In this document: one piece after another, positions 51,487 through 56,990 of the stretch
How positions within the stretch are numbered: the stretch's first letter is position 1
Layout of the letters: the number at the start of each line of letters is the position of its first letter
Assembly: GCA_963807235.1 (NCBI GenBank)
Contig: CAWEBF010000023.1
Span: 15,693-79,692 of the forward strand
DNA from: an uncultured Acidobacteriota bacterium
GTDB taxonomy: Bacteria; Acidobacteriota; Vicinamibacteria; Vicinamibacterales; UBA2999
Direction of reading: 5' to 3'
DNA length: 64,000 nucleotides
Translations under genes and position numbers: made by a program
Notes under the pieces: generated by a model
The model's input: only the letters and a program-made list of their open reading frames with translations
Database searches by the model: none
What the model was told of the DNA's origin: nothing

Positions 51487-52071
51487 TCAGTTCCCGCGGC
51501 CTCGACCCGGCCCCCCCTGGCGGTTTTGCTGCTGTTCGGTGGACGGCGGCACCACGCCCTTCAGACGCTGATACACCGTGCCGATGCCATACATCTCGTT
51601 GCCGTGCTCCAGCACGGCGCTGAGAATGACCGCCCTGGCCCTGGGGCCGCCCCGGCCGCCCGTCACCATCTCGACGGCCGACTGATCGGTCAGCGACGCA
51701 AACGCCTCGTCGCAGAGGACGAACGAGTCGGCGAGGGCCTTCACCACGGCCGCCTTGGTGGTCGCCGTCTGCTCCAGGTTGTTGCCCTGATTCGGATTCG
51801 GAACGCCCCTGGCCTGCGCGCACTGGCCGTACTGAAAGTTCGCCACGTGCCCCCAGAGCTGCCCGTAGCCGCGGATCTCGTTCGTCGGCTTGAAGGCGTA
51901 GTCCGCCTCAGACAGCTTGTCGGCCGACGCCACCAGCAGTCCCTTGATCCGGGCGTAGGCCGCCTGCATCCCCGCGGCCAGCCCGACAGGCTGCCCCCCG
52001 GGCCCTCCCTGCGCGTACGCGGCCGGGGCGACAAGCGACAAACAGACGACGAGACACACGAGACATTTCAT
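51487..52071 (-). CDS. Secreted DinB-family protein
   Basis: Y.FKPT..R..GQL.GH, H.NE.YG and YQRLKGVVPPST; signal peptide. Confidence 0.8.
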   Translation of the reverse strand: MKCLVCLVVCLSLVAPAAYAQGGPGGQPVGLAAGMQAAYARIKGLLVASADKLSEADYAFKPTNEIRGYGQLWGHVANFQYGQCAQARGVPNPNQGNNLEQTATTKAAVVKALADSFVLCDEAFASLTDQSAVEMVTGGRGGPRARAVILSAVLEHGNEMYGIGTVYQRLKGVVPPSTEQQQNRQGGPGRGRGN

Positions 52072-52075
52072 GGTT

Positions 52076-52621
52076 TCAGGCTCCCTTGGTTTGGATCAGG
52101 TCAGGATGATGCGTGCGGGCGTCCCACAGTTGGAGCACGGCGCCAACTGCCGCGTCCAGGTTCACGCCGCTCGTGTCGATGGTCAGCTCCGGATCCGACG
52201 GCGCTTCATACGGATCGCTGACGCCCGTGAATGAGCTGATCTCGCCGCGCCGCGCCTGCGCGTAAAGGCCCTTCGGATCGCGCCGTTCGCATTCGGCGAG
52301 CGGCGTCGAGACGTAGATTTCCAGGAACACCCGGCACATCGACCGCACGGTCCGGCGGGCCTCGGCGTACGGAGAAATCAGCGCACACAGCACCGTGACG
52401 CCATGGTGTTCGAGACGGCTTGCAAGGAAACCCACCCGCTGTACGTGGGCGTCGCGTTCGGCGCGACTGAATCCGGTAGGCGACAACGCGCGGACAGCGT
52501 CGCCGTCGAGAAGCTCTGTGGGAATCGCGTGAGCGTGCAGCGCGCGCTCGACCGCTGTGGCCAGCGTGCTCTTCCCCGCTCCGGAAAGGCCCGTGAACCA
52601 CAGCACCGCTGGCGCTCGCAT
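52076..52621 (-). CDS. cysC: Adenylyl-sulfate kinase
   Basis: WFTGLSGAGKST, LDGD, ISPY, RDPKGLY and FTGVSDPYE.P. Confidence 0.95.
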   Translation of the reverse strand: MRAPAVLWFTGLSGAGKSTLATAVERALHAHAIPTELLDGDAVRALSPTGFSRAERDAHVQRVGFLASRLEHHGVTVLCALISPYAEARRTVRSMCRVFLEIYVSTPLAECERRDPKGLYAQARRGEISSFTGVSDPYEAPSDPELTIDTSGVNLDAAVGAVLQLWDARTHHPDLIQTKGA

Positions 52622-52681
52622 CCGGAGCGCATTTTACCGGCTCGCGCATGGACGATATGTAAAGACGTGATTCTTGCGCCA

Positions 52682-52710
52682 TTGACGACCCGTTGGAACA
52701 GGAGTAGCGT
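52682..52710 (+). promoter_or_regulatory. Sigma-70-type promoter for the riboswitch-SPFH transcript
   Basis: TTGACG-17 bp-TAGCGT; the predicted start site (about 52716) coincides with the aptamer 5' end. Confidence 0.6.
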
Positions 52711-52716
52711 CGAAGT

Positions 52717-52832
52717 ACGCCTAAGACGCCAGCACGACTGGCGACACGGGGGACCCAATCGGTGGGGCGAATCCGGTATTACGCCGGACGAGGACTTCCA
52801 ACCTCGAGCCCGTCAGCTAACCCCGTCGGCGC
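52717..52832 (+). ncRNA. Cyclic di-AMP riboswitch (ydaO/yuaA class)
   Basis: Hallmark blocks CGGGGGACCC...GGGGCGAATCC...CCCGTCAGCTAACCCCG; P1 CGCC/GGCG; P2 CGCCAG/CTGGCG; 15 nt upstream of ATG 52848. Confidence 0.9.
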
Positions 52833-52847
52833 GATTGGAGGCCTGCC

Positions 52848-53795
52848 ATGTTCGCGTTTGGTTCTACTTCCCCCGTCCGACGTGTGCCTGCCGCCGCCCG
52901 CGTGGGTGTCGCGGCGCTCGTTGTCTCTACAGTCGCCGCCAGCGCCCTGGTGTGGCTCGCCGGCTCGTCGAATCCCTTCACGCCCGCGGGCTACGTGGGC
53001 TACCTCACGCGAGGCGCCGTGTTCGGGCGCTCCTCGTTCTACGCCACGCAGCGCGGCCCCACCTCTCCCGGGCGCGGCTGGCTGCTGCGCGTCGCCAACG
53101 TCAGCGTGACGCCGTACACCTACTCCGACGACTTCGTGGGCGACGACGCCGTGCTGAGCCGCGACAACCTGATGATCGGGTTCAAGGTGCACACCGTCTG
53201 GCGCGTGGACGATCAGCGAGTGCCGCTCTTCATGGAGCGGTATAGCACCACGGTCACGAACGGTCGCACGGAAGATCACCCCGACGCCATCGTGAAGGTG
53301 GCTTACGGCAACTTCATCCGCGAGCCGCTGCGAACCTATGCGAGAGACGAGGTGCAACGGCGGAACGGTCTCGAAGTGAAAGACGCGCTGGTCGCGATCG
53401 GCGACGCCGTGCTGGCGCGCATCAGGGCCTACGCGCTGAACAGCCCCTTCGTCATCACCAGCGTGGTCGTGGGCAACGTGCAATACCCCGAGGAGATCGC
53501 CACGGCCGTGTCGAACAAGCTGGCGGCCACGCAGGTTCTGCAGCGCAAGGACACGGAAATCGAGATCGAGCGCAAGGAACGCACCAAACGTGAGGTGCAG
53601 GCGCAGGGCATCGCCAACGCCATGCAGATCATCCGCGGGCAGCTCAGCCCGCTCTACGTGCAGCACGAGGCCATCGAGGCGCAGAAGCAGATGGTCAACT
53701 CGCCCAACCACACCGTGGTCTACATTCCCGTGGGGCCTATGGGCGTGCCCGTGACGGCCACGATGACGGCCGACCAGGGAGCGGCCGCACGCTAG
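52848..53795 (+). CDS. SPFH/band-7/prohibitin-domain protein
   Basis: N-terminal TM, P.GYVGY, LSRDNL, P.EI..AV..K and EA.GIA coiled coil; RBS GGAGG. Confidence 0.85.
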   Translation: MFAFGSTSPVRRVPAAARVGVAALVVSTVAASALVWLAGSSNPFTPAGYVGYLTRGAVFGRSSFYATQRGPTSPGRGWLLRVANVSVTPYTYSDDFVGDDAVLSRDNLMIGFKVHTVWRVDDQRVPLFMERYSTTVTNGRTEDHPDAIVKVAYGNFIREPLRTYARDEVQRRNGLEVKDALVAIGDAVLARIRAYALNSPFVITSVVVGNVQYPEEIATAVSNKLAATQVLQRKDTEIEIERKERTKREVQAQGIANAMQIIRGQLSPLYVQHEAIEAQKQMVNSPNHTVVYIPVGPMGVPVTATMTADQGAAAR

Positions 53796-53798
53796 TCG

Positions 53799-53846
53799 CG
53801 CACCCGCGGCCCCTCCGCCCAGTCGGAGGGGCGAGCGCGGGAGTGC
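53799..53846 (+). terminator. GC-rich stem-loop after the SPFH gene
   Basis: GCCCCTCCG...CGGAGGGGC core extended by CCCGCG/CGCGGG; no clear U-tract. Confidence 0.45.
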
Positions 53847-53878
53847 ATGTTAGGCTAACGCTCTGCTGGCGAAACTCT

Positions 53879-56420
<2,542 letters not shown>

Positions 56421-56429
56421 GCCGTTGCC

Positions 56430-56990
56430 GTGGGCGACCGCCAAGTCACGACACTCCTTCAGCGCGCATCGGCCGGCGACGATCAGGCTCGGGCCGCACT
56501 CTTCGACGTGCTGTACAGCGAGTTGCGGAAGCTGGCCGAGGCGGCGATGCGCCGGGAGCGGCCCGACCATACGCTGCAGCCCACGGCCCTGGTCCACGAG
56601 ACCTACGTCCGCCTGGCCGACGACAGCGGCCGCTTCGAGAACCGTGCCCACTTCTTCGGCGTCGCCGCCAGTGCGATGCGCCGCGTGCTCGTGGATCACG
56701 CGCGGGCACGCGGGGCACAGAAGCGGGGCGGAGGCGAGGCTTTCGTCGCCGTGGACAATCTCGACAACCTGCCGGGCGCGCCTCCAGGCACGGTGGACCT
56801 CGTGTCCCTGGACGATGCGCTTTCGAGGCTCTCGGTCCTCGATTCCAGGCAGGGGCGCGTGGTCGAGCTACGGTTCTTCGGGGGCCTGTCGGTGGAGGAA
56901 ACGGCCACCATCCTCGACCTGTCGCCCCGGACCGTCAAGCGCGAGTGGCAGATGGCCCGCGCCTGGCTGCGTCGCGAACTCGCTCAGTAG
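56430..56990 (+). CDS. ECF sigma factor, TIGR02999/ECF43 type
   Basis: VT.LL, LY.ELRKLA, HTLQPTALVHE.Y, NRAHFF, AMRRVLVDHAR, KRGG and ARAWL. Confidence 0.93.
   Translation: MGDRQVTTLLQRASAGDDQARAALFDVLYSELRKLAEAAMRRERPDHTLQPTALVHETYVRLADDSGRFENRAHFFGVAASAMRRVLVDHARARGAQKRGGGEAFVAVDNLDNLPGAPPGTVDLVSLDDALSRLSVLDSRQGRVVELRFFGGLSVEETATILDLSPRTVKREWQMARAWLRRELAQ

Follow-up and report, generated by a model that had tools for sequence, protein, structure and literature searches.

Why does a riboswitch of the c-di-AMP class precede a gene encoding an SPFH/band-7 membrane scaffold, and what would such a scaffold do in a cell where this signal is low? The question is raised by a 64,000-nt stretch of acidobacterial DNA (hereafter the window), whose initial annotation proposed that a c-di-AMP riboswitch controls the translation of a lone SPFH gene. 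The riboswitch class and its mechanism are known, whereas its attachment to this target gene does not appear in the literature searched. Full-text searches retrieved no paper linking c-di-AMP or a ydaO riboswitch to SPFH/band 7 genes (in a body of literature that leaves out Nelson 2013 and Block 2010 with their gene lists), no paper joining SPFH with potassium transport and, among the matches listed, no paper on the c-di-AMP regulon of this lineage.

We consider it probable that this riboswitch, whose pseudoknot includes the Shine-Dalgarno sequence of the SPFH gene, acts as a translational OFF switch, the SPFH protein being made at low c-di-AMP together with potassium importers of the same regulon; with less certainty, the protein would support the control of potassium or turgor. 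In what follows, L-numbered loci are loci from relatives, the close set comprises 77 of them encoding 72-82% identical proteins, and the 78 sequences are the window plus these 77.

The riboswitch, its gene and its host

The Rfam scan gives a covariance match to RF00379, the c-di-AMP (ydaO) riboswitch, at 52708-52845 on the forward strand (74.2 bits, with the cut-off at 38, and E 2.3e-15), complete over positions 1-134 of the model. The proposed ydaO-class aptamer is therefore borne out at about twice the Rfam cut-off. This is the sole Rfam match within the window and the only copy of RF00379 in the genome (6.25 Mb, 82% complete, all 99 candidates scored). Stems P1-P3 and P5-P7 and the pseudoknot between the P7 loop and the 3' tail are all present in the model alignment and the pair tables, P1 being formed by 52718-52721 with 52828-52831. 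Pair counts were made on an anchored register rather than on the MAFFT alignment, and the two first P3 rows were excluded from the pair tables; the P2 pairs alternate between G-C and A-U among relatives. Among the conserved junction bases of the two ligand pockets, GACCCA, GGGGCGAAU and CCCGUCAGCUAAC agree with the sequence that PMC5393176 gives for the crystallised RNA; the base after P1 is U, where the Rfam consensus has G. The aptamer had been described as ending 15 nt before the SPFH start, but the ligand-bound fold, which includes the pseudoknot, reaches 52841, 6 nt before the ATG.

The riboswitch lies within the 226 nt that separate the SPFH ORF (from 52848) from a divergently oriented adenylyl-sulfate kinase gene (start at 52621). 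It forms the 5' leader of the SPFH gene, on the same strand, behind a promoter deduced from conservation. This sigma-70-type promoter (52682-52710, forward strand) consists of TTGACG at 52682-52687, a 17-nt spacer and TAGCGT at 52705-52710; transcription is predicted to begin near 52717, where the 5' side of P1 starts. Its hexamers score 8/12 consensus matches, so that it was not listed by a scanner whose threshold is 9/12. Nevertheless, the hexamers are present as first annotated, and 69 of the 74 parsable sequences have a TTGA(C/T)-N16-18-TAnnnT site at a distance of 7-13 nt on the 5' side of P1.

The SPFH gene itself (52848-53795, forward strand, ATG to TAG) encodes a protein of 315 aa that matches Pfam PF01145 (Band_7) with an E-value of 9.8e-14. 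Just 3' of its stop codon, on the same strand, lies a strong G+C hairpin devoid of any U-tract (53800-53843; -40.3 kcal/mol for 53793-53870), which is absent from the list of the terminator scan and likely marks where a transcript of this one gene ends. As for RNA data, five runs contain 5-14% of the words and one soil RNA library holds a 217-nt contig identical to 53488-53704, but these library data are contigs only and therefore bear neither on transcription nor on the start site. On either side, the divergent adenylyl-sulfate kinase gene (52076-52621, reverse strand) is not conserved as a neighbour, and the region 53860-56990 carries a gene for a Ser/Thr kinase with TPR repeats, whose reading frame is interrupted near 53970-54006 by what is likely an assembly error, then one for an ECF sigma factor (TIGR02999).

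Acidobacteriota titles, many of them Vicinamibacterales, are found for 74 of the 77 closest loci, in agreement with the acidobacterial host that had been suspected. The presence of a diadenylate cyclase, on which the first interpretation depended, is also verified: the genome encodes CdaA (PF02457 with 144 bits, TIGR00159 over its cut-off, DGA and RHR motifs) from a gene located behind folP and followed by a YbbR-domain gene, and a DAC domain occurs in 145 of 150 genomes of the host's order. The host would thus be able to make c-di-AMP, as judged from its cyclase gene. No PgpH-type 7TM phosphodiesterase domain was found in the genome, which is 82% complete and encodes three DHH proteins.

Conservation of the riboswitch-SPFH association

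The SPFH orthologues of related genomes do keep the aptamer, a point that the initial annotation had proposed to check. The core motif lies at most 400 nt upstream of the gene at all 77 close loci and at none of three distant ones; Rfam confirms it in 27 of the 27 close loci scanned, the other 50 being supported by the core motif. Since these 77 loci belong to one clade (support 100), their count reflects a single association that was retained and not 77 events. Their gene neighbours vary. An even sample of the order, chosen to avoid the bias of best-hit selection, contains the SPFH gene in 19 of 150 genomes, with an Rfam match directly upstream in 18 of the 19; the remaining locus lies at a contig end, with 136 nt upstream. 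The gene is patchy, being found in none of 12 genomes of the host's family and in 2 of 301 genomes of a phylum-wide sample. Three riboswitch-SPFH loci (L045, L056 and L066) that group together (support 98) bear Acidobacterium, Cyanobacteriota and Acidimicrobiia titles, which may reflect either transfer of the cassette or mislabelled bins.

A control was provided by 80 metagenome loci fetched by sister-clade alignment, which were counted if they had at least 150 nt upstream or the motif, 19 short loci being left out. The aptamer precedes all seven loci at 68% identity or more versus only 4 of the 54 sister-clade loci at 53-65%. These four sister-clade aptamers (L231:1141-1293, L232:273-425, L239:614-766 and L247:275-427) are Rfam-positive, with 62-64 bits, and correspond to a second type that differs in its loop, its tail and its leader, the RBS lying about 70 nt further on. 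The free tree nests this second type among aptamer-less genes, which favours a second origin of riboswitch control for these four loci, but the AU test does not reject a single origin (p 0.116, 31 rows). Furthermore, in three genomes that carry the sister gene, all incomplete, no cyclase was found and no aptamer was found anywhere. As 50 of the 54 sister-clade loci lack the aptamer and no cyclase was found in these three incomplete genomes, the protein family works without c-di-AMP. Three sister SPFH genes in low-G+C loci (L241, L242 and L246) have no aptamer and are followed by one ORF whose start we take to read like that of a membrane pyrophosphatase.

In Verrucomicrobiota, a relative of the SPFH protein is encoded by 8 of 251 genomes, and none of these eight loci has an aptamer within 1.5 kb. 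RF00379 itself occurs there in 5 of 150 genomes (20 candidates scored per genome), always before TrkH, KimA-like or Na/H exchanger genes.

The potassium-transporter regulon and a possible role of the SPFH protein

In the order of the host, RF00379 is found in 67 of 150 genomes, with 94 matches, 18 of which (about a fifth) lead this SPFH gene. The other targets were surveyed from 54 downstream ORFs of loci from the class, the order and Verrucomicrobiota, of which 48 were scanned after exclusion of four SPFH and two wrong-frame ORFs. They encode 30 APC/KimA-like proteins, seven Kup, three TrkH, one TrkA, one Na/H exchanger and six proteins without any Pfam match. One of the APC members matches KimA of B. 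subtilis (E 6.5e-136), and four of the six Pfam-less proteins are members of one family, which can be aligned with the KimA group at 97.8% probability and retains the Asp and Tyr of the first-helix motif. A KimA-like APC family of about 640 aa without Pfam or PDB sequence match (L013:3659-5554, L011:3386-5296, L068, L103, L128, L135 and L139) sits behind either c-di-AMP aptamers or SPFH genes and may be regarded as a candidate potassium importer. The two kup genes of the window genome have no riboswitch; the second (L173, G000:C14:52077-53975) is split over three frames, likely by assembly frameshifts.

The same aptamer class and a regulon of potassium importers are known from the leaders of Bacillus subtilis kimA (ydaO) and ktrAB and of B. 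thuringiensis kdpFABC. Those leaders differ in acting by transcription termination, and no SPFH member appears among their genes in the passages of PMC6488665 and PMC7266159 that describe them.

Some SPFH genes are themselves adjacent to potassium transporter genes. In L025 and L047, a kup gene comes directly after SPFH, its start codon overlapping the SPFH stop codon, and in L011, L013 and L068 a KimA-like gene takes this position, while L003 (1894-2264) carries two back-to-back c-di-AMP riboswitches, one leading a divergent kup and the other leading SPFH. The SPFH gene, described as lone, is indeed alone in the window, but a Kup or KimA-like gene comes directly after it at 5 of the 77 close loci (six when L003 is counted). 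Metagenome loci add two more SPFH-kup pairs, and two sister-clade genes lie downstream of a kup or KimA-like gene. L003 and L013 also have a small hydrophobic ORF that shares nucleotides with the SPFH stop codon; in L013 it precedes the KimA-like gene.

The predicted structure of the SPFH protein (AlphaFold, mean pLDDT 88, 70 sequences) comprises an N-terminal helix at about 15-39, which hydropathy indicates to be hydrophobic, SPFH domains and a long coiled-coil helix at 215-265. The PF01145 domain, the putative membrane anchor and the modelled coiled coil are the features by which membership of the SPFH/band-7 family is recognised; no NCBIfam model matches the protein. A PDB profile search returns prohibitins only, with matches over the C-terminal half at E-values from 9e-14 to 2e-6, and prohibitins also lead the fold searches, closely followed by erlin, HflK/C and stomatin: Foldseek gives an E-value of 1.8e-12 to PHB2 and VIA-align a Z of 14.4 to PHB1/2 (rmsd 9.0, 233 aligned), with erlin and HflK/C tied within 1. 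The N-terminal membrane helix, SPFH domains and coiled coil are shared with human prohibitin 1/2 (8RRH, 9O9Z), erlin, E. coli HflK/C (7VHQ), QmcA-YbbJ (8Z5G) and stomatin-aquaporin-1 (9ZD2). However, the protein is only 10-18% identical to these ring-forming relatives and is encoded by a single gene with no adjoining gene for a partner subunit, NfeD or FtsH. By analogy with its family, it would form a membrane-bound ring facing the periplasm.

The least certain step of the proposed mechanism is that this anchored ring, on the periplasmic side, would support potassium uptake or turgor control. In the simplest form of this step, the ring would house or stabilise Kup or KimA-like importers. Human stomatin encloses aquaporin-1 and UT-B, according to PMC12407830, which makes a transporter-housing role plausible for the SPFH protein. 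The main competing explanation keeps the same c-di-AMP OFF switch but gives the protein a general role in the envelope, as a ring around an FtsH-type protease or as a stiffener of the membrane at low turgor, without its ever touching a potassium transporter; for the role of the protein, we give this explanation only slightly less than an even chance. It draws on the nearest solved relatives, prohibitins and HflK/C, which house AAA proteases (as reported in parts of PMC12005517), on the control of cell-wall hydrolases by other c-di-AMP riboswitches (passages of PMC9960051) and on the 71 of 77 close loci where no Kup, KimA-like or Trk gene lies within 2.5 kb. Nonetheless, neither ftsH nor nfeD nor a second SPFH gene occurs among the recurring neighbours or the 60 scanned downstream genes, the sampled members of the regulon in this lineage are ion-transport genes, and the transporter genes that follow SPFH occur in three separate branches of the tree, all of which speaks against this explanation.

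Expression platform and predicted control by c-di-AMP

The initial annotation had noticed that CTTCCAA can pair with TTGGAGG in the RBS region. This pairing turns out to be the pseudoknot of the riboswitch class itself. Its 5' strand is the P7 loop, which acts as anti-Shine-Dalgarno and lies at 52795-52801, one base to the left of the coordinates first given (52796-52802), and its 3' strand, at 52835-52841, includes the Shine-Dalgarno sequence GGAGG (52837-52841), 6 nt 5' of the ATG, both being on the forward strand. Five core pairs are kept in all 78 sequences, and an ATG or GTG lies 10-11 nt downstream of the start of GGAG in all 78. Covariation is weak in the SPFH set (80 versus 74.5 +/- 2.4 in shuffles, p 0.017, from flanking columns and 28 distinct rows of related sequences) because the core of the pseudoknot is almost invariant there; among 38 transporter-linked aptamers of the same lineage, the loop and the tail change together by two-sided changes. 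Minimum-energy folding is uninformative (z -0.88), as this method can represent neither a ligand nor a pseudoknot.

A second pairing had been put forward, between CCAATCG in the J3/4-P4 segment (52755-52761, forward strand) and CGATTGG (52832-52838). The two strands are complementary in the window genome, but only there, and the pairing has a probability of about 4% in the computed ligand-free ensemble. It was rejected as a regulatory alternative: of the 78 sequences, 56 allowed P4 to be parsed for this check, the match between the heptamers is found again in none, and a long P4 hairpin stands at this place in most relatives. The complementarity is likely incidental.

The proposed translational control fits an RBS located inside the pseudoknot with the start codon directly 3' of it, and the RNA is likely to be a translational OFF switch by analogy with two characterised riboswitches. 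The closest is riboCdA of Thermoanaerobacter pseudethanolicus, which has the same RF00379 fold, a P7 loop-tail pseudoknot including the Shine-Dalgarno sequence, a close start codon and no terminator. According to PMC11963983, its pseudoknot closes off ligand site 2 and masks the Shine-Dalgarno sequence, with about 6-fold repression of a reporter that mutation abolishes. The present case differs by its SPFH target and its acidobacterial host, and both binding and repression are here predicted from the sequence. The nlpC riboswitch of Corynebacterium glutamicum also lacks a terminator, and a similar anti-RBS model of translational repression, in which a CTCC loop would pair with the RBS GGAG, is proposed in parts of PMC9960051; its target is a cell-wall peptidase and its host uses the cyclase DisA, versus CdaA here.

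It is improbable that the main effect of c-di-AMP is on transcription or on the stability of the mRNA, through Rho-dependent or non-canonical termination after a block of translation, as is reported for the Streptomyces riboswitch. High G+C genomes often lack U-tracts, so that the lack of one leaves some room for this explanation; however, only 6 nt separate the pseudoknot from the start codon, the Shine-Dalgarno sequence lies within the pseudoknot throughout the 78 sequences, and the terminator scan detected no U-tract terminator in 51500-55000, as first annotated. Still less credible is a variant aptamer with another ligand, or a relic carried from a kup leader. In its favour, most of 74 sequences have UAA instead of GAA behind P1, 19 of 76 have GUA or GCA at the second junction, and the kup-linked aptamers of L003, L142 and L145 closely resemble the SPFH-linked ones. 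Against it, pairing, promoter spacing and core persist across 72-82% identical proteins although the stems differ both in length and in sequence, and the three genomes that carry the sister gene and in which no cyclase was found have no aptamer. U is the usual first base behind P1, versus G in the Rfam consensus, in the transporter-linked aptamers of the lineage as well; an SPFH-specific ligand variant is unsupported, the aptamers before KimA-like and Kup genes carrying the same bases.

At 11 of the 77 loci (L003, L013, L031, L032, L036, L041, L042, L043, L050, L060 and L063), falling in at least two branches of a quick tree, the captured Shine-Dalgarno sequence opens a short ORF of 16-35 codons, and SPFH starts 90-160 nt later with its own RBS, behind a structured spacer. 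An anti-Shine-Dalgarno sequence inside the short ORF exceeds shuffles in L003 and L013 (p 0.003 or less) and marginally in L041 (p 0.037), not in the other eight; the short ORF of L003 runs on in frame. Ribosome-constrained folding of these leaders gave no consistent shift. The short ORF could possibly relay translation to the SPFH start in L003 and L013. Seven of the short-ORF loci have common spacer motifs without Rfam match, and five other loci show out-of-frame starts that suggest frameshifts introduced by assembly.

For the translational OFF switch, the sequence of events would be as follows. At high c-di-AMP, the ligand-bound pseudoknot would sequester the SPFH Shine-Dalgarno sequence. 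At low c-di-AMP, a state which in Bacillus accompanies a shortage of potassium and may do so here, the SPFH protein would be translated alongside the potassium importers of the same regulon. A bolder proposal, which we regard as rather unlikely, is that this SPFH subfamily serves specifically as an accessory of potassium import, its ring housing Kup/KimA-type importers as a bacterial counterpart of stomatin-aquaporin-1, and that it came under c-di-AMP riboswitches on at least two occasions, through different platforms (direct capture of the Shine-Dalgarno sequence, leader-peptide relay and the second aptamer type of the sister clade).

Globally, these data document a CdaA cyclase and a riboswitch regulon in a diderm soil lineage beyond the literature searched. 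As the riboswitch names the signal to which its gene answers, it also gives the SPFH protein a testable job, the control of potassium or turgor, and thereby likely links a scaffold about which little is understood to the control of both potassium and turgor.
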